Source: Candidatus Saccharimonadales bacterium (GTDB taxonomy: Bacteria > Patescibacteriota > Saccharimonadia > Saccharimonadales > OMJO01). From it: a DNA stretch of 64,000 nt. Position numbers and translations under genes: made by a program. A model generated the notes under the pieces. That model searched no databases. It had not been told where the DNA came from and worked only from the letters and a program-made list of their open reading frames with translations. How positions within the stretch are numbered: the first letter of the stretch is position 1; the number at the start of each line of letters is the position of its first letter. The stretch spans positions 457,323-521,322 of the forward strand of contig DATIID010000001.1 in assembly GCA_035480035.1 (NCBI GenBank), in the 5' to 3' direction. Below are positions 2,660 through 10,564 of the stretch, in pieces.

Positions 2660-4183
2660 GTGTCGTCAACGAATGAAAAAATCGGTCACCTTATTTACCA
2701 GATACGACAAGAACGCGGTTTAACCCAAGCCGAGTTTGCCCGTAAGCTTAGTACCTCACAATCGGCTGTTAACCGCATCGAACACGGCAAACAAAACTTA
2801 TCACTTGAGACTCTGGGCCGCATCAGCGATGTTTTAAACAAAAAGATTATTAGTATTGGTGAAGGTGGCATTAACCTGCGTATTGAGGGTGGTCATGAGC
2901 TACATGGTGAGATTAGTGTTAAAACCAGTAAAAACGCCACTGTTGGACTACTTTGCGCTGCCCTTCTAAATCGGGGTACTACCCGCTTAAAAAATGTGCC
3001 GCGAATAGAAGAAGTTAACCGGATTATTGAGGTCTTAATAAGTATTGGTGTCCATGTACGATGGTTGGCCAATAACGACCTTGAAATTAAACCGCCGGCC
3101 GTTTTAGACCTTGACAGTATGAACAAAGAAGCCGCCCGTAAAACCCGAACTGTCATAATGTTTATTGGTCCGTTAATGCATCAATTTAATGAATTCAAGA
3201 TTCCCTACGCCGGTGGTTGCGAACTGGGACGGCGTACCGTTCTGCCACATCTTTACGCTCTTGAGGAATTCGGCGTTGACGTCCTAACTAAAAGCGGACA
3301 CTACAATATTACCGTCAACAAACATCCGGCTAAACGATCAATTGTACTTTATGAATCCGGCGACACCACTACCGAAAACGCGTTGATGGCCGCTGCCTGT
3401 ATTGACAGTGAAACAACAATTAAAATGGCGAGCGCCAATTACTCGGTCCAAGATGTTTGCTTTTTCCTTCAAAAACTTGGAGTGCGTATCGATGGAATCG
3501 GTACAACGACTCTAAAGGTTCATGGTGTTAAACGGATTAAGAAAAACGTGACTTACGCGCCTAGCGAAGATCCGGTCGAGGCGATGACCTTTATTGCGGC
3601 CGCCGTTACCACTAACTCCTCAATTACAGTCAAGCGTGTACCACTGGAGTTTACCGAACTAGAGTTACTTAAACTTGAGAAAATGGGCTTAAAATTCAAA
3701 GTTAGTAATAGCTACAAAGCTGAAAATGGCAAAACTGATCTTGTTGATGTCAAAATTTTCAAGCATGATGGCCAATTAATAGCGCCCATGGATAAAATTT
3801 ATGGTCGGCCTTTCCCCGGTCTAAATATTGATAATCTGCCTTATTTTGTACCGATTGCCGCCGTCGCTAAGGGACGCACCTTGATCCATGACTGGGTTTA
3901 TGAAGACCGAGCATTGATGTATACCGAAATGAAAAAAATTGGTGTGGATATTGAACTTGCTGATCCTCACCGGGCCTTTATTAGTGGTCCGACCCGTTGG
4001 CGAGCCGCAGACATTGTTAGTCCGAGCGGTATTCGACCAGCTGTTATGCTTCTAATCGGCATGCTGGCAGCTCCTGGTGAATCTATCCTTCGAAACGTTT
4101 ATACCATTAACCGTGGGTACGAAGACCTAGCGGCGCGTTTAGATAGTTTGGGCGCCAAGATTACAATTACCCACGATATCTAA
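2660..4183 (+). CDS. murA: XRE-type HTH domain fused to a UDP-N-acetylglucosamine 1-carboxyvinyltransferase (MurA/EPSP-synthase fold)
   Basis: The N-terminal ~65 aa form an HTH (GLTQAEFARKLSTSQSAVNRIEHGKQN). The rest is MurA-like, including the active-site loop GGCELGRRTVLPH. The ORF-track TTG start at 2522 runs antisense into glyA; GTG 2660 is the only plausible start before the HTH. Confidence 0.8.
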   Translation: MSSTNEKIGHLIYQIRQERGLTQAEFARKLSTSQSAVNRIEHGKQNLSLETLGRISDVLNKKIISIGEGGINLRIEGGHELHGEISVKTSKNATVGLLCAALLNRGTTRLKNVPRIEEVNRIIEVLISIGVHVRWLANNDLEIKPPAVLDLDSMNKEAARKTRTVIMFIGPLMHQFNEFKIPYAGGCELGRRTVLPHLYALEEFGVDVLTKSGHYNITVNKHPAKRSIVLYESGDTTTENALMAAACIDSETTIKMASANYSVQDVCFFLQKLGVRIDGIGTTTLKVHGVKRIKKNVTYAPSEDPVEAMTFIAAAVTTNSSITVKRVPLEFTELELLKLEKMGLKFKVSNSYKAENGKTDLVDVKIFKHDGQLIAPMDKIYGRPFPGLNIDNLPYFVPIAAVAKGRTLIHDWVYEDRALMYTEMKKIGVDIELADPHRAFISGPTRWRAADIVSPSGIRPAVMLLIGMLAAPGESILRNVYTINRGYEDLAARLDSLGAKITITHDI

Positions 4184-4186
4184 GTC

Positions 4187-5467
4187 TTAGACAGTTTGGC
4201 CGATACGTTCGGGCGAAATCCAAGTGCCGCGAACTAATTTGCGGTTAGCAATGAACTTGAAGTTGAATAGACAGCGAAACGCTGCAATCACCTGGATCGA
4301 AGTCATGACATAGAAAACTATGTACATCAGTGGTGCTAGCAAAGTCATACGAATTTTGCGGATTAAGGTCATGTGTTCATCACCCCAAAGGGCTAACAGT
4401 AGAAAGCCCGTCATAGTCGCCCACGCAATGATGAATAGAATTGGGTTGTGATACTTTAAAGCCAAGTAAATGAAGTATGTGAAGTAAATTGGTTCAAGTA
4501 GTAGTTGGAATTCGGCCCAAACCGCCATTGGTAAACGTACCCAAGATAGCATCTTGCTATATTTACGATGGCTGTTAAATAACATCTGACGGTTCTGATA
4601 AATGGCTTGTAGTCCACCAAACTTCCAACGATAACGTTGTTTTAACAGACTCTTGTATGTCGAAACCGGTTCGGTATAAACTAACACGTCACTGGCGTAA
4701 TGAATCCGGTTTTCCTTATTACCAAGCGATGCTAATGCCAAACTAAGAGCAATATCTTCAGTCTTCATAGACTCGTCGTAACCGCCAAGTTTATTCATGG
4801 CATCACGTGTGTACATCGCACCTGCCCCACCGACAATGTATTCACTGTTTGAGATATTGTTGAACTTCTTTGAACGAAAACCTCCCAAGAATTCAAACTG
4901 CTGCAATGTACCAAGTATCTTACCGTTATCCATAATTCGGACATTTGGCGACAAAGCGCTTGGTTCATCTTCGATAAAGTGACGAACAGCTCGTGAAATA
5001 GCATAGCGGTCAATCGTACAGTCGGAATCTAGTGTCATGATAATATCACCCCGAGCTTGACGTTTTAGGGCATGGTTTAACGCGCCGGCTTTGCCGCGAT
5101 TAACATGCATATTTAGCAAGCTAATGTTGCGGCTAGGGTGGGCACAAATATATTGCATCACAATTTGACGAGTATTATCGATTGAAGCATCATCGATAAC
5201 AACAATTTCAAATTTCCGGTAAGTACTAGCCAGTAAGCTGTCTAAACACCTTTTGATAACTACTTCCTCGTTGTGGGCCGGAACTAAAACCGTTACCAGT
5301 GGGCGTTTTCGATAAGCTCGACGGTGGGGGTGTTTGCGGCGCATTGACTGACGGCGAATTAAACGCATGTCATAGATGCTGGCACCAATCAATGACATAG
5401 TGCTGTAGGTTAGGCCAATTAAAACTGTCAGGCCAAATAGAATCAAAAGGAAGTTAATTGATACCAT
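4187..5467 (-). CDS. processive family-2 glycosyltransferase (PgaC/IcaA/cellulose/chitin-synthase-like), membrane-embedded
   Basis: It has an N-terminal TM and the motifs VIDDASIDNT, LDSDC, TEDIALS and QRYRWKFGG (the D, DxD, TED, QxxRW series), followed by a C-terminal multi-TM bundle. Confidence 0.8.
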   Translation of the reverse strand: MVSINFLLILFGLTVLIGLTYSTMSLIGASIYDMRLIRRQSMRRKHPHRRAYRKRPLVTVLVPAHNEEVVIKRCLDSLLASTYRKFEIVVIDDASIDNTRQIVMQYICAHPSRNISLLNMHVNRGKAGALNHALKRQARGDIIMTLDSDCTIDRYAISRAVRHFIEDEPSALSPNVRIMDNGKILGTLQQFEFLGGFRSKKFNNISNSEYIVGGAGAMYTRDAMNKLGGYDESMKTEDIALSLALASLGNKENRIHYASDVLVYTEPVSTYKSLLKQRYRWKFGGLQAIYQNRQMLFNSHRKYSKMLSWVRLPMAVWAEFQLLLEPIYFTYFIYLALKYHNPILFIIAWATMTGFLLLALWGDEHMTLIRKIRMTLLAPLMYIVFYVMTSIQVIAAFRCLFNFKFIANRKLVRGTWISPERIGQTV

Positions 5468-5469
5468 GT

Positions 5470-6051
5470 TTATTCTACCCTTATCAGATCAAATACAAAC
5501 AACCGGCGGTTTTGATACCAAGCACCCGAACAGGTCTGGACAGTTAAGATTGGTGGACCTTGGTAGTTAAAAAGACTTGTATCATCAGGCTTAACATCTG
5601 ATTCAGTACGGTAACTGTAGTAAAATTTATGGCCATTATCAGTATAAATAATGACAACGTCACCAGCTTTAATCTTTAGTAACTTACCGAATACCTTATG
5701 ATTGTTATGGCCATAAATAAAAGTGTTACCGCCGACGTTATTAGCCTGTGCAGTCATAACCGCATACTGGGCGTGGGTACCGCTTAAACTCCAGGTTCGT
5801 GTGGTTTCATTGTAATAACCCTTGTCAACTTGCAAATCAATAGCTTCAGCCGGAACAACAATTCGTGTCGGTATGCCTTGAATAGTTACTTTAGGAGCTG
5901 GCTTTGGCTTTGCGGGTGTTAAAGCCGCCACCTTAGTTTGTCCATTACTGCCCGTGTTATCAAACAAAGTGCCACCACTAAGAAGAAAGGTGCCGCTCAG
6001 AACGAGCAGCACCGGAGCAATAAAACGGATGTTTTGAATCCACCGCTTCAT
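5470..6051 (-). CDS. sortase-family transpeptidase
   Basis: It has a signal anchor, a catalytic His (FIYGHNNH), a TLxTC-type motif LTVQTCSG and a downstream Arg (NRRLFVF). A GAGGA SD sits 6-7 nt before the ATG. Confidence 0.8.
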   Translation of the reverse strand: MKRWIQNIRFIAPVLLVLSGTFLLSGGTLFDNTGSNGQTKVAALTPAKPKPAPKVTIQGIPTRIVVPAEAIDLQVDKGYYNETTRTWSLSGTHAQYAVMTAQANNVGGNTFIYGHNNHKVFGKLLKIKAGDVVIIYTDNGHKFYYSYRTESDVKPDDTSLFNYQGPPILTVQTCSGAWYQNRRLFVFDLIRVE

Positions 6052-6063
6052 ACTTTTCCTCGC

Positions 6064-6246
6064 TTACTTAGAAGCAGAACGACGACGGTAAACAGTAACC
6101 ATTACCTGGCTGAAAAGTGCAATCGCACCACCAGAAATAGCTATAACTGCACCGTAAGTAAGCCAAGTTCGGCCGCCGGTGTTAGGCAGTAAAGCAATAC
6201 CACCAACAGTTGTTGATGCACTAAGAACGTATCCGTTAGTGTTCAT
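6064..6246 (-). CDS. 60-aa protein consisting essentially only of an LPXTG sorting signal
   Basis: The sequence is MNTNGYVLSASTTVGGIAL-LPNTG-G, then a hydrophobic TM (WLTYGAVIAISGGAIALFSQVMVTV), then a basic tail YRRRSASK. A strong AGGAGG SD lies 4 nt upstream of the ATG, and the gene is 13 nt upstream of the sortase. Confidence 0.6.
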   Translation of the reverse strand: MNTNGYVLSASTTVGGIALLPNTGGRTWLTYGAVIAISGGAIALFSQVMVTVYRRRSASK

Positions 6247-6355
6247 AGGTCCTCCTAAGTTATTATTAGCGATGGATTTTTAAGGTCTTGTCATAGATGC
6301 CTCCACACGAGTGGTAGCTACCATGACAGGTTCCCCAAAAACTCTATCAAACAGG

Positions 6356-6384
6356 ATTATACATGACTTGTGACATTTTGTAAA
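6356..6384 (-). promoter_or_regulatory. near-consensus sigma70 promoter of the LPXTG-sortase-GT2 operon
   Basis: On the minus strand: TTTACA (6384-6379), 17-nt spacer, TATAAT (6361-6356). This predicts a ~100-nt 5' leader. Confidence 0.6.
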
Positions 6385-6489
6385 GTATCTTTTACTACAT
6401 ACTTAAGCATAACCTCTTTAATCTGTAATACTTGTGCTTAAAATTCCAAAATTTTTTGAAAAAATATATAGTTTTAATAAATTTGGGTT

Positions 6490-8256
6490 TTAGAGCGTAC
6501 TAGTTTTCAACTCATTTTGGAGTACTCCAACAGCCGGTTTGGGTTGAAAACTACTATCCCAGAGCAAATCATTACCATAATCTAACGGGTAAACATGCAG
6601 GTTTGTTGTTGAGCCGTACGCATCACTTATACCCCACGTCGTATATGATGTGCAGTTAGATGACACTAAACAGGCTTCCAGCACGGCCTGGTATTGTTGA
6701 GTTTGAGACGCCAAGTCATCACCGTAAGCATCGACTTCGGAAATTCTAACAGATAGCCCCATCTGAGCTAATTGGTGCATGTGACGGATAATCGTTACTT
6801 TATCTTCAAGATCACGAGATTCATGGATGTGCGACTCAAAACCGACGCCATCAAGTGGTACACCACGCTGTTTTAGCCCCTGAAGTAATTGGATCATAGC
6901 ATCCCAACGATCACCGTCTACCTCTAGTGCATAATCATTAATGTAGAGCTTGGCCGTCGGATCAACGGCATGAGCAGTTCTGAGTGCAATGTCGATATAA
7001 TTTGGGCCCATTGCCTGCCACCAGATATGGTGTCGAAGGCCGGTCTTGCCCAAGCCATAATCGGAATCATTATCTGATAACGGTTCGTTGATGACATCCC
7101 ATTCGGTAATTTTACCCTTAAAGTGATTAACGACTTGAGTGATGTGATCAATCATAACTTGTTGTCGTTTATCAAGTAGCGTATTTTGCATCCATTTGGG
7201 GTTAGCCTCACCAAAAACTAAGGTATGGCCGTGTACTCTGATGCCATTAGCAAGAGCGGTGTCTACTAACTGGTCGGCGTCATTAAAAGAGTAAGTGTTT
7301 GGCTGAGGATGTATGAATTGGGGTTTTAGATCATTTTCGGTAGTCCATGTGCTGAACTGATTAAGCGCTAATTCACGATAAGACTGATTTGTCATTAATG
7401 GATATAACGAAACAGCGGCGCCAATCGGCAAGCGTTTACTCAAAATATTCAGATCATTTGAACTGTGTTTTGATCCGTTCGATAGTGGTTTAGCTAAAGC
7501 AACTTGTCCATTATTTAACGACCCGGCGGTCAGCGATTTGATTGTCCAACCAGTGCTACCAACTGCGGCATCAGTACCAAACCAGATTTCACCACTATTA
7601 AAAATAGCTCGATCCTTCATTGTAGCAATGATATGATTTTTGGCTGAGATGATAATTCGATTAGATAGATGATTAATAAACAAGGTGTTATTGTTTGCTA
7701 TATTAATTGGATATGACTGCTGATAGACCGGTTGGTCGTCAGTCCCATCCCAGATGCTGATCTCTATTGAATTTGTTGATTGCTTGATCTCAACACTGGG
7801 TGTTTCATACCGCCATTCATCATAAATAACCGGTACTTGCCCATAAAGACGTAACGATCCAGTTGATGACGGAGCATTGTGGCTGACTAGTTGCATTCGG
7901 AAATCACCCCTAACCCTTAGATGCGTACCGGATACATTAACCGGTGGATTTAGTTGGTTATCACTACCGTCTTGATTCACTATCGCCCTGTCCAAAGGTG
8001 TTATTTTGACGCCTTCATTATTAAAACTGGCGCCAGCTACCTTGGACCAAGCTTGGTTTGCTAATAAATTAACTGATAATTCATCGGTACTATTTAAAAC
8101 CGTATTATTTAATTTTTCATTGAAACTGCGGTCATATAAAAACAGTCCGAAAGATGTACCAATAATTAGTATTACAGCCAACATAAGTAATAGCTTGTTT
8201 GACAATATCTTTATTACCCCTTTGCGCCGGGAAAATGCTAATGAATATACTTGCAT
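6490..8256 (-). CDS. membrane-anchored glycoside hydrolase family 10 (xylanase-fold) protein with an unknown N-terminal beta-rich domain
   Basis: The C-terminal half carries GH10 signatures: WDVINEPL (acid/base Glu), LYINDY, ISEVD (nucleophile Glu). There is an N-terminal signal anchor (LLLMLAVILIIGTSFGLFL). Confidence 0.75.
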   Translation of the reverse strand: MQVYSLAFSRRKGVIKILSNKLLLMLAVILIIGTSFGLFLYDRSFNEKLNNTVLNSTDELSVNLLANQAWSKVAGASFNNEGVKITPLDRAIVNQDGSDNQLNPPVNVSGTHLRVRGDFRMQLVSHNAPSSTGSLRLYGQVPVIYDEWRYETPSVEIKQSTNSIEISIWDGTDDQPVYQQSYPINIANNNTLFINHLSNRIIISAKNHIIATMKDRAIFNSGEIWFGTDAAVGSTGWTIKSLTAGSLNNGQVALAKPLSNGSKHSSNDLNILSKRLPIGAAVSLYPLMTNQSYRELALNQFSTWTTENDLKPQFIHPQPNTYSFNDADQLVDTALANGIRVHGHTLVFGEANPKWMQNTLLDKRQQVMIDHITQVVNHFKGKITEWDVINEPLSDNDSDYGLGKTGLRHHIWWQAMGPNYIDIALRTAHAVDPTAKLYINDYALEVDGDRWDAMIQLLQGLKQRGVPLDGVGFESHIHESRDLEDKVTIIRHMHQLAQMGLSVRISEVDAYGDDLASQTQQYQAVLEACLVSSNCTSYTTWGISDAYGSTTNLHVYPLDYGNDLLWDSSFQPKPAVGVLQNELKTSTL

Positions 8257-8374: not shown

Positions 8375-10564
8375 ATGAGATCAATTTTAGCTAAACTTAA
8401 GCGAAATACACGTAAATTTAGAACTATATCCTTTACGGCTATTGGTGTCTTAGGTGTCACCGGTAGTATTTTGATGCAAGCTTATGCTGCAACCATCAAT
8501 ACTTCGCCAGCAGCTAAAGTCTCATTTACCTTCGATGATGGGTTGACCAGTGCTGCTACCCAAGCTGCACCAACTCTTCAAAAATATGGTCTGACCGCCA
8601 CGGATTACGTAATAACTGGCTGTGTTGGTATGACAACTGCTCCAAACACTTGTCACGCCAACACTGATGCCAGTTATATGACTTGGGATCAAATTAATCA
8701 GCTTAAGAACACTTACGGTTGGGAAATTGGTGCTCACACCGTAACTCACCCTTATTTAGCTAGTTTCGATGCCAGTGATGGTCAGCCAAACCCCTTGACT
8801 ATGGACCAAGTTAAGCAAGAGTTAACTCAAAGTAAAGCCGATTTAGCGACTCACGGTATTACAGCTACTGATATGGCAACTCCTTATGGTGACTACAATA
8901 TGCCTGTTTTAGCTGAAATTGCTAAAAATTATCAATCTCAACGTGGTTTTGCTGATACCGGTTATAATGGCTGGCCAAACAGTGATTACTTAATCCGTGA
9001 ACAACAGGTTCAGGGCGGCGTTAGCGTAGCTACAGTCAAGAGTTATATTGATTCGGCAATTGCTAATAAGCAATGGTTAGTGTTGGTATTCCACGACATT
9101 ATGACTAACGCTAGTACCAATCCGGACGACTACCAGTACAGCACATCTAACTTAGACCAAATTGCCGCATACGTTAAGTCGAAGAGTTTACCGGCAGTTA
9201 ATGTAACTGACGGATTAGTTAAAAGTGATGTGAATCTGTTGCCAAATGCCAGCTTTAACAGTGGTATAAGCGGTGGTTGGACGACTGATTCAGCGAATGT
9301 GAGCGGTGACGGAGGCAACAACGGCAGTTACCCCGATCCTCTAAACTCGGTCAAGATGGTTGGCGGCACTCAAGCTGTTCATTTGTTTTCACCAAAAATT
9401 ACAGTTGATCCGAGTACAACCTACATGCTGAAGAGTTTTCTAAACGTTCAGAAGATTACCAGTGGTGAAGTCGGCTATTACATTGATGAGTATGATGCCA
9501 ACGGTAACTGGGTATCAGGCCAGTTCAAGGCGGCCGAGCACTCAGTTTTTGTCGAAGAGATGAATTTCTCTTACAAACCAACCTCAGCTAATGTTCGTAG
9601 TGCCAGTTTGCAGGTTTATACCACTGCTAACTCTGGTGTGACTGCATACCTTGATAATGCTCAGTGGTTTCCATTAACAACCGGAACTGTTACTCCTGCT
9701 AATTTAGCTTTGAATCATCCAGCCACATCTTCAAGTGTTAGTGGTACGGGTTTTGAAGCTGCTAAAGCCGTTGACGGTAATAGCGGTACAAGTTGGAATA
9801 GTGTTAGTCGTACTGACCCTCAGTGGTTACAAATTGATCTTGGCTCTACAACTAACATCAATCAAGTGACGGTTAACTGGGTGTCAAGTAATTACGCCAA
9901 GTCTTACCAGATACAAGTTTCAAATGATGCTACTAACTGGACAAACATCTATAGCACTACATCTGGGACTGGCGGAACCAATGATTTGACTGGTTTAAGC
10001 GGCAGTGGTCGTTACGTTAGGATATACGGTACAGCTCGGAGTGCCCGAAAAGGTAGTTACTCCTTGTCAGAAGTGTCGGTATATGGCACAGCAACGACTG
10101 TACCGGCTCCAACTACCGACCTAATGACAAATGGTAATTTTGATACTGGCATCAGTAATGGCTGGACAACTGATTCAGCAACTAGTGTTACGGCCGACAA
10201 TCAAAGTAATGGTAGTGTGGCTAACCCGATTAACTCGGTTAAAATAACTTCTGCGGCCACAAACGTACATTTGTTTTCACCAAAGATTACGGTCGACTCA
10301 ACTAAAACCTACAGTTTGAGTGCTTTTCTAAACCTTAAAGCCCGTACTTCAGGTGAAACAGGTTTTTACATTGACGAATATGACGCCAACGGTAACTGGA
10401 TATCAGGCCAGTGGAAGCTTGCAGTGACAAGCTTAGGCAGTGGAACTTTCCAAATTAGCTACAAACCAACGTCTGCAAATGTTAAGCAATCTAGTCTTCA
10501 GATTTACACTACAGCTAACTCTGGTATTACAGCTTACGTCGACGACGTTAAGTGGTTACAGTAA
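8375..10564 (+). CDS. secreted polysaccharide deacetylase (CE4/NodB) with two CBM-like modules flanking an F5/8 type C (discoidin) domain
   Basis: It has a signal peptide, the CE4 motifs FTFDDG and HTVTHPYL, a discoidin-like block (AVDGNSGTSWNS...WLQIDLG...YQIQVSNDATNW) and two homologous ~145-aa modules. Confidence 0.8.
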   Translation: MRSILAKLKRNTRKFRTISFTAIGVLGVTGSILMQAYAATINTSPAAKVSFTFDDGLTSAATQAAPTLQKYGLTATDYVITGCVGMTTAPNTCHANTDASYMTWDQINQLKNTYGWEIGAHTVTHPYLASFDASDGQPNPLTMDQVKQELTQSKADLATHGITATDMATPYGDYNMPVLAEIAKNYQSQRGFADTGYNGWPNSDYLIREQQVQGGVSVATVKSYIDSAIANKQWLVLVFHDIMTNASTNPDDYQYSTSNLDQIAAYVKSKSLPAVNVTDGLVKSDVNLLPNASFNSGISGGWTTDSANVSGDGGNNGSYPDPLNSVKMVGGTQAVHLFSPKITVDPSTTYMLKSFLNVQKITSGEVGYYIDEYDANGNWVSGQFKAAEHSVFVEEMNFSYKPTSANVRSASLQVYTTANSGVTAYLDNAQWFPLTTGTVTPANLALNHPATSSSVSGTGFEAAKAVDGNSGTSWNSVSRTDPQWLQIDLGSTTNINQVTVNWVSSNYAKSYQIQVSNDATNWTNIYSTTSGTGGTNDLTGLSGSGRYVRIYGTARSARKGSYSLSEVSVYGTATTVPAPTTDLMTNGNFDTGISNGWTTDSATSVTADNQSNGSVANPINSVKITSAATNVHLFSPKITVDSTKTYSLSAFLNLKARTSGETGFYIDEYDANGNWISGQWKLAVTSLGSGTFQISYKPTSANVKQSSLQIYTTANSGITAYVDDVKWLQ
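9233..9675 (+). repeat. intragenic duplicated module, copy 1 (CBM-like)
   Basis: Protein NLLPNASFNSGISGGWTTDS...YIDEYDANGNWVSGQ...YKPTSANV...YTTANSGVTAYLD parallels copy 2. DNA similarity is visible, e.g. gatgccaacggtaactgggtatcaggccag. Confidence 0.8.
10118..10561 (+). repeat. intragenic duplicated module, copy 2 (CBM-like)
   Basis: Protein DLMTNGNFDTGISNGWTTDS...YIDEYDANGNWISGQ...YKPTSANV...YTTANSGITAYVD. DNA example: gacgccaacggtaactggatatcaggccag. Confidence 0.8.

Follow-up and report, generated by a model that had tools for sequence, protein, structure and literature searches.

A minimal LPXTG protein, a sortase and a PgaC/IcaA-like glycosyltransferase encoded side by side in Saccharimonadia

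The operon and its three products

We analysed a 64,000-nucleotide stretch (hereafter the window) of contig DATIID010000001.1 from the Candidatus Saccharimonadales bacterium assembly GCA_035480035.1. Three minus-strand genes in it encode a very small protein with an LPXTG-type sorting signal (the mini-protein), a sortase and a membrane glycosyltransferase of family GT2 that resembles PgaC and IcaA (Table 1). This gene order was tight, translationally coupled and found in more than 50 species. An earlier note on the same DNA had pointed out the three open reading frames (ORFs), and all of them were present. The GAGGA Shine-Dalgarno sequence ahead of the sortase gene, the gap of 2 nucleotides (nt) between the sortase and GT2 genes (TAA-ac-ATG) and the near-consensus promoter ahead of the operon were also as it had described them. 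The gap between the mini-protein and sortase genes, however, measured 12 nt (gcGAGGAaaagt) and not the 13 nt claimed. These two ORFs share one reading frame, and the mini-protein gene has an AGGAGG Shine-Dalgarno sequence of its own.

Relatives were gathered with a sortase profile run against a single genome of each GTDB species, which gave 162 of them. The best 80 of the 162 loci were kept, and all locus counts below (out of 80, 60 or 15) were made on these with our own scripts. Nearly all of the 80 loci came from metagenome-assembled genomes (MAGs) of Saccharibacteria or Saccharimonadales, a few being labelled only “bacterium” or Patescibacteria, and every close sortase homologue with a named source was from Saccharibacteria. 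The sortase itself was 100% identical to that of a Candidatus Saccharimonadales MAG. The habitats of the Saccharibacteria carrying the mini-protein, sortase and GT2 operon were soil and water.

The mini-protein (60 amino acids, aa; MNTNGYVLSASTTVGGIALLPNTGGRTWLTYGAVIAISGGAIALFSQVMVTVYRRRSASK; layout MNTNGYVLSASTTVGGIALLPNTGG-TM-YRRRSASK, TM being a transmembrane helix) has a 19-residue N-terminal part (N-part) rich in Gly, Ala, Thr, Ser and Val, with a Tyr at position 6. A complete tripartite sorting signal follows, made up of LPNTG, a hydrophobic helix (best 19-residue Kyte-Doolittle window 1.98) and a basic RRRSASK tail. Public gene callers also predict this ORF, and neither Pfam nor NCBIfam gave a match to its product. 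Searches of the 64-kb window and of 850 kb of flanks from relatives turned up no further credible LPXTG ORF, the remaining matches being spurious frames. Homologues of 51-68 aa were encoded directly upstream of the sortase gene in 60 of the 80 loci, each behind a strong Shine-Dalgarno sequence, and nearly all of them started with Met-Tyr. In 59 related loci the motif was LPNTG in 42 and LPATG, LPKTG, LPSTG or a similar variant in the others. A word-based homologue search with the peptide recovered two close relatives only, and an exhaustive single-sequence search recovered nine small relatives together with low-complexity noise. Because sequence searches found so few relatives, the family was defined by its genomic context, and two of its members were detected only by inspection of the reading frames.

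The mini-protein is under purifying selection. Among 42 related pairs (Nei-Gojobori method) the ratio of nonsynonymous to synonymous substitution rates (dN/dS) was about 0.03-0.2 in most pairs and at most 0.41. The earlier note had been ready to drop its idea if the small ORF showed no conservation at the amino acid level or no purifying selection; it was instead conserved, with low dN/dS. When 15 pairs were split by region, the ratio of nonsynonymous to synonymous differences (pN/pS) was 0.10 upstream of LPxTG, 0.05 in the motif and 0.21 in the TM helix and tail. The N-part, which is the stretch that a sortase would transfer, was thus more constrained than the TM helix and tail. It was 8-29 residues long (median 19) and consisted mainly of Gly (23%), Ala (20%), Val (15%) and Thr (11%). 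The first six residues included a Tyr in 57 of the 60 peptides; in 50 of 59 it stood at position 2.

A signal peptide was not found in any of the 60 peptides, as judged by the charge, length and hydrophobicity of the N-part. We considered the N-part itself as a signal peptide and rejected this, since it is only 8-29 residues long, weakly hydrophobic and free of Lys and Arg in 35 of the 60 peptides, which leaves these without a signal-peptide n-region. The last 12 residues carry on average 3.5 Lys or Arg. From the uncharged N-part, the basic C-terminal tail and the positive-inside rule we infer a single-pass protein with its N-terminus outside and its C-terminus inside. Its short uncharged tail could be translocated with no signal peptide, as happens with the Pf3 coat protein.

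The domain assignments made earlier for the sortase and the GT2 were borne out by Pfam matches above cut-off. The sortase matched PF04203 with 64.2 bits (cut-off 26.6, E 1.2e-17, residues 64-186). Its presumptive catalytic residues H115 (in YGHN), C174 (in TVQTCSG) and R182 were invariant in 26 homologues. An AlphaFold model (predicted local distance difference test score, pLDDT, 85) consisted of a TM helix (residues 5-25), a coil linker (26-57, with pLDDT below 50 at residues 31-40) and an eight-stranded catalytic barrel (58-193). The nearest solved folds were Streptomyces SrtE1, class A sortases and Thermobifida SrtE, and a profile search of PDB sequences agreed with these neighbours. None of the NCBIfam class models was reached (class E 28.8 of 160 bits, class D 27.7 of 165, class C 24.4 of 160, class GN 17.1 of 158). 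With every class model below its cut-off, the sortase was given no class, either from sequence or from fold.

In having a dedicated sortase and one small substrate, the operon recalls pilin-specific sortase operons, and several of the peptides start with MYGGKGGG, with a Lys at position 5. It could be supposed from this that the sortase polymerises mini-proteins, head to tail or through lysine, and so builds a short wall-borne peptide fibre or mini-pilus. We regard this as very improbable. A Lys was present in the N-part of only 22 of the 60 peptides, so that a lysine nucleophile of the pilin type is unlikely, the peptides had neither a pilin motif nor an Ig-like fold, and the sortase gave no class C lid signal (24 bits on the class C model, against a cut-off of 160).

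The GT2 matched the Pfam model Glycos_transf_2 with 113.9 bits. The full D, DxD, TED and QxxRW series claimed for it was confirmed: D93/D97, D147-S-D149, T236-E237-D238 and Q277-R-Y-R-W281 were all invariant in an alignment of 40 sequences. The PgaC_IcaA model TIGR03937 aligned over positions 9-406 of 407 with 165.3 bits, below the cut-off of 422.3 that defines this equivalog of poly-beta-1,6-N-acetylglucosamine (poly-beta-1,6-GlcNAc) synthases. A partial match was found to the XrtG-associated GT2 model TIGR03111 (91 bits, cut-off 364). Many GT2 homologues have precomputed chitin-synthase Pfam matches, and the JGI label is PgaC. In the AlphaFold model (pLDDT 87, predicted template modelling score 0.86) there were about four TM helices, a long one at the N-terminus and three more long ones at the C-terminus. 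Foldseek placed it next to PcManGT and, with probability 1.00, next to the hyaluronan synthases CvHAS of Chlorella virus and XlHAS1 of Xenopus (TMq 0.66-0.68), BcsA and yeast Chs1. A non-processive, soluble enzyme would have spoken against the earlier proposal; motifs and fold instead matched membrane-integrated processive synthases. The GT2 thus resembles the PgaC/IcaA family in its predicted working while scoring below the equivalog threshold. It is a PgaC/IcaA-like membrane synthase, probably UDP-GlcNAc-dependent and processive. Its predicted product is most likely a beta-linked GlcNAc polymer, because of the family resemblance, and such a product would fit the polysaccharide deacetylase of family CE4 encoded nearby.

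Table 1. Features of the operon and its surroundings in the window (positions are those of the window)
Feature	Position	Strand	Size	Remarks
Mini-LPXTG protein gene	6246..6064	-	60 aa	
Sortase gene	6051..5470	-	193 aa	Pfam PF04203
PgaC/IcaA-like membrane GT2 gene	5467..4187	-	426 aa	Pfam GT2 families
Sigma-70-type promoter	6384..6356	-		TTTACA-17-TATAAT, 11/12 consensus matches
Structured 5′ leader, possible regulatory element	6247..6355	-	about 105 nt	RNA fold, hairpins in relatives
Extracellular CE4 polysaccharide deacetylase gene, N-terminal anchor, divergent	8375..10564	+		Polysacc_deac_1 and F5_F8_type_C
GH10 family glycoside hydrolase gene, N-terminal TM	6490..8256	-		Glyco_hydro_10, E 4e-78
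MurA (UDP-GlcNAc enolpyruvyl transferase) gene, N-terminal XRE-type helix-turn-helix	2522-4183	+		HTH_3, E 5e-15

Three architectures among the relatives

The earlier proposal depended on the small LPXTG ORF, the sortase and the GT2 being syntenic in relatives. Since the triad recurred, in the same gene order in more than 50 species-level genomes, the absence of synteny that would have spoken against the proposal was not observed. Complete Saccharimonadia genomes with the module include OY970322.1, OY970327.1, OZ246417.1 and OY970356.1. A PgaC-like GT2 gene (scored as more than 250 bits against the GT2 protein of the window) lay adjacent and downstream in 51 of the 60 mini-protein loci. Conversely, every locus with a PgaC-like GT2 gene carried a mini-protein gene unless its sequence ended just upstream of the sortase gene. 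The gaps between the sortase and GT2 genes ranged from -67 to +8 nt and mostly from -4 to +8 nt.

The loci fell into three architectures. Type A, found in about 51 species including that of the window, combines the mini-protein, the sortase and the PgaC-like GT2, in most loci with a CE4 deacetylase. Type A', found in about 8 species of one sortase clade, has the mini-protein and the sortase together with another kind of GT2 encoded downstream, and most of its loci include a CE4. The downstream GT2 gene was convergent in 4 of 5 loci examined, and its product retains DxD, TED or AED, and QxxRW. Type B, found in 15 species that mostly belong to one sortase clade, a sister clade, pairs the sortase with an LPXTG protein of 122-220 aa and has no CE4 nearby. 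Sortase clades tracked substrate type. In some species the mini-protein gene was preceded by another PgaC-like GT2 paralogue (L002:4220-5506, L007:4234-5523 and L023:2163-3446), so that the sortase pair is flanked by two synthases. The second GT2 gene was immediately upstream in L002 and L007, and a CE4 gene lay between in L023.

The type B substrates were 170-220 aa long in all but one locus and had a passenger rich in Asn, Ser, Thr and Gly. A signal peptide could be read in two examples that were translated in full, and no Pfam match was found for three that were tested. A GT2-like neighbour was detected by the locus scan in 8 of the 15 loci, and nine such proteins were aligned (L017:6573-7775, L024:6599-7774, L066:6585-7736, L018:6390-7595 and L036:6465-7586, and those of L026, L035, L051 and L070). 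They have lost the DDxS, DxD, TED and QxxRW motifs and kept the layout of one plus three TM helices, and in five of the nine loci the gene overlaps the sortase stop codon by 4 nt. On these grounds the type B protein reads as a sortase-coupled pseudo-glycosyltransferase that is predicted to be catalytically dead. That the sortase-GT2 pair has outlasted the loss of catalysis speaks for a physical partnership of the sortase with the membrane domain of the GT2, and the two probably work as a physical pair.

The sorting-signal tails of the mini-proteins in the clade of the window (...AYRRR...) were similar to the tails seen in type B substrates (...AAYRRSSLGQL), a likeness that suggests a shared origin of the two kinds of substrate, the mini-protein being the form without signal peptide and passenger. 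Two loci in our sample, L063 and L071, came from the same MAG (JBBPZG01), which has two sortases of this family. One is encoded beside a 122-aa LPNTG protein that apparently bears a signal peptide; the gene of the other is followed by a PgaC-like GT2 gene. Some genomes may thus combine both substrate types.

The CE4 deacetylase is part of the conserved module. With a homologue counted as associated if it lay within 6 kb of the locus, CE4 was present at 50 of the 60 mini-protein loci and at none of the 15 loci with a large substrate. In six species (loci L009, L015, L057, L059, L064 and L079) the CE4 gene came directly after the GT2 gene and on its strand, an order suggestive of a four-gene operon. 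The CE4 of the window matched PF01522 with 63 bits, contained the TFDDG and HTVTH motifs and gave weak matches to the IcaB and PgaB models of NCBIfam. By eye, its C-terminus contained two similar modules, each about 150 residues long (...GWTTDS...YIDEYDANGNW.SGQ.K...TAY.D...), that resemble duplicated carbohydrate-binding modules.

The distribution of CE4 bears on what the sortase might use as an acceptor. In one alternative the LPNT carboxyl would be joined to a glucosamine amine that CE4 has exposed on the glycan, giving a peptide-capped or peptide-decorated polysaccharide (compare NodC/NodB/NodA and PorU of the T9SS, the secretion system of type IX). SrtA accepts aminosugar nucleophiles in vitro. 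The confinement of CE4 to mini-protein loci and its position directly after the GT2 gene in six species would fit this alternative, as would the translational coupling of sortase and GT2, which would put the sortase at the exit site of the polymer. We know of no natural sortase with a 2-amino sugar as acceptor. T9SS also offers a precedent, since PorU removes a C-terminal signal by sortase-like transpeptidation and joins the new C-terminus to a glycan, anionic lipopolysaccharide (A-LPS) (PMC7468200). The enzyme, the signal and the envelope are all unrelated to those discussed here, however, and PorU serves as an analogy only. Moreover, CE4 also goes with the active GT2, so that its correlation with the mini-protein is not specific to the sortase step, and the benefit of a neutral peptide of 20 residues on the polymer is hard to see. 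Transfer to the glycan therefore appears rather doubtful to us.

Promoter, leader and flanking genes

Of 59 related species, 46 had a promoter similar to that of the window (at least 10 of 12 matches, mostly TTTACA-16/17-TATAAT) upstream of the mini-protein gene. Its distance from the mini-protein start was 39-181 nt and mostly 60-110 nt. That the promoter is kept upstream of the mini-protein gene supports one transcription unit starting before the small gene.

The leader RNA of the window folded with a minimum free energy of -34.5 kcal/mol (z-score -3.77 against shuffles). In one clade a leader hairpin with a CACGTG loop showed three compensatory pairs, and in several species a hairpin was followed by a U-run. 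Structured leaders of about 60-110 nt were seen in the window and in loci L008, L011, L021, L022, L031, L054, L062 and L010. No Rfam family matched the leader: only tRNAs reached the gathering threshold, and matches at E<=5 within 6200-6520 were noise. A known riboswitch was rejected on this basis. The leader may be a transcription attenuator. At the other end of the operon the convergent GT2 and MurA genes end 3 nt apart (window 4181-4189). No intergenic terminator is therefore possible, and any terminator would lie inside the opposite coding sequence.

The GH10 gene, located between the CE4 gene and the operon in the window, had homologues in only 11-12 of the 80 loci and is an inserted neighbour, not a core part. 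About 270 residues of its N-terminal sequence have no assigned domain. Other syntenic genes among the 80 loci were those of MurA (27 loci), GlyA (20) and MurB (14). The public gene call for the MurA of the window (507 aa) carries both the helix-turn-helix and the enzyme domain, and homologues of about 508 aa were present in 27 related loci; to our knowledge, a DNA-binding domain fused to MurA is unusual. Clustering of the conserved neighbours showed no IcaC-like or PgaA-like gene.

This cell-wall neighbourhood, with MurA, MurB and GlyA in synteny, raises the alternative that the genes are not mechanistically coupled at all. The sortase would then be a housekeeping enzyme, the mini-protein a wall decoration or a remnant substrate, and the genes would merely share an envelope operon. 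Small genomes tightly pack functionally related genes, and sortases are common in bacteria of the candidate phyla radiation (CPR), where Méheust et al. recorded one common sortase family and said nothing further on it (PMC6744442). Against this stand stop and start codons that overlap or nearly abut across three architectures and more than 60 species. The pairing also survives the loss of GT2 catalysis, sortase clades co-vary with substrate type, and the window and the 850 kb of flanks hold no other credible LPXTG ORF. We consider a mere sharing of the operon unlikely.

Known systems and the function of the module

Operons in which a sortase adjoins its cognate substrate are known from S. aureus (SrtB-IsdC), B. 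anthracis (class D SrtC-BasH/BasI) and Streptomyces (class E sortases and chaplins). The present genes resemble them in the adjoining substrate, with its LPXTG-type motif, hydrophobic segment and basic tail, and in the N-terminal anchor and the His/Cys/Arg site of the sortase. Unlike in those operons, the substrate has no signal peptide and a passenger of only 8-29 residues, the sortase reaches no NCBIfam class cut-off, a GT2 gene is translationally coupled and a CE4 gene is linked.

A link between a sorting transpeptidase and exopolysaccharide genes has been described for the PEP-CTERM/exosortase (EpsH) system, in which a C-terminal sorting signal, consisting of a motif, a TM helix and a basic cluster, is tied together with its putative transpeptidase to exopolysaccharide biosynthesis (PMC1569441). 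The genetic tie is alike here. The exosortase, however, is an unrelated polytopic membrane protein, its hosts have an outer membrane, and PEP-CTERM substrates, unlike the mini-protein, generally have signal peptides and usually occur many per genome. Neither an exosortase nor a PEP motif was found at this locus, where the enzyme is a sortase, the motif is LPNTG and the XrtG-associated model was matched with 91 of 364 bits. Hyaluronan synthase, BcsA and chitin synthase share the D, DxD, TED and QxxRW motifs and the fold of the GT2, which is much smaller, has about four TM helices against their six to eight, and lacks a PilZ or other regulatory domain.

We found no description of the triad of mini-protein, sortase and GT2 in the full-text literature, in which subscription journals are thinly covered, so that an earlier description is possible. 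The earlier note had likewise known of no described system that joins a sortase to a polymer synthase and a passenger-less sorting signal. The literature search and the lack of an NCBIfam model for the peptide agree with this. A preprint on a CPR “Pam pilus” concerned an unrelated system, a donor-strand-exchange pilus, and was set aside.

The operons for poly-beta-1,6-N-acetylglucosamine (PNAG), icaADBC and pgaABCD, likewise hold a membrane GT2, a small membrane protein and a CE4 in one locus. Here, no IcaC or PgaA equivalent was seen, and the sortase gene stands between those of the small protein and the synthase. PgaC and IcaA need a small membrane partner, and the mini-protein could be such a membrane subunit, docking on the TM domain of the GT2 as IcaD or PgaD would; cleavage would then be a step of maturation or regulation, and the fragment of Gly, TM helix and basic tail would be the functional part. 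The likeness of the GT2 to PgaC/IcaA extends over its full length and it has only about four TM helices, the operon includes the gene of a small single-pass protein, and the type B pseudo-GT2, which keeps both its TM domain and its coupling to the sortase, would fit an interaction at the level of the TM helices. However, IcaD and PgaD have two TM helices, and the mini-protein has one, together with an LPXTG signal, no detectable similarity to either and no Pfam or NCBIfam match. Its TM helix and tail are less constrained than its N-part (pN/pS 0.21 against 0.10), and LPxTG and the conserved N-terminal Tyr would be superfluous in a mere subunit. We think it improbable that the mini-protein serves in this way.

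The reading that we favour, tentatively and at somewhat less than an even chance, is that of a conserved envelope module of Saccharimonadia, in which a dedicated sortase-substrate pair is functionally coupled to a poly-GlcNAc-type synthase and a CE4 deacetylase. The 60-aa protein would insert without a signal peptide, like the Pf3 coat protein, with its uncharged tail of 8-29 residues outside and its basic C-terminal tail inside. The membrane-anchored sortase would cleave LPNT|G and move a peptide of about 23 residues, headed by Tyr and rich in Gly, Ala, Thr and Val, onto an amine, most probably that of a peptidoglycan stem peptide or lipid II. The adjoining GT2 would polymerise and export a glycan, part of which CE4 would deacetylate. 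In the least certain step, the wall-linked peptide would be an attachment or organising point for the glycan layer. We infer both the acceptor of the peptide and the peptide-glycan link.

Several observations weigh against the favoured reading. The score of 165 bits on the PgaC/IcaA model, against 422, leaves the identity of the polymer uncertain. With only about four TM helices the GT2, like PgaC and IcaA, may need a channel partner. The catalytically dead partner in the sister clade indicates that the pairing of sortase and GT2 is not always about a polymer. Finally, the scan for LPXTG ORFs was confined to the window and the locus flanks.

A further reading, in which the mini-protein acts as an adaptor that covalently joins an exopolysaccharide of processive synthesis to the wall, with the sortase docked on the synthase, seems rather unlikely to us. 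Two routes to it can be envisaged. In the first, the glycan would be attached to the conserved N-terminal Tyr/Thr-rich peptide, which the sortase would then fix to peptidoglycan; in the second, the nucleophile would be a glucosamine amine of the nascent polymer that CE4 has exposed. The hypothesis of the earlier note, that the peptide anchors or primes a glycan on peptidoglycan, is one of several readings of the module.

Sortases are understood to display sizeable Sec-exported proteins or to build pili. Here, a bacterial class keeps a sortase whose substrate is a sorting signal with some 20 residues and no signal peptide, and whose gene is joined to that of a polysaccharide synthase. With a dead GT2 that remains coupled to the sortase, the sister clade provides a natural contrast by which scaffold and enzyme roles could be told apart. 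If the parts of the favoured module act together, they would represent either a novel means of fixing or modifying an exopolysaccharide on a wall of the Gram-positive type or a novel use of sortase cleavage in regulation. Were the mini-protein indeed an adaptor, glycan would be attached to the wall, or peptide to glycan, in a sortase-dependent manner without LytR-CpsA-Psr (LCP) ligases. Saccharibacteria are epibionts, and their envelope, which mediates host contact, is poorly characterised. The arrangement suggests that this group builds its cell surface in a way not yet explored.

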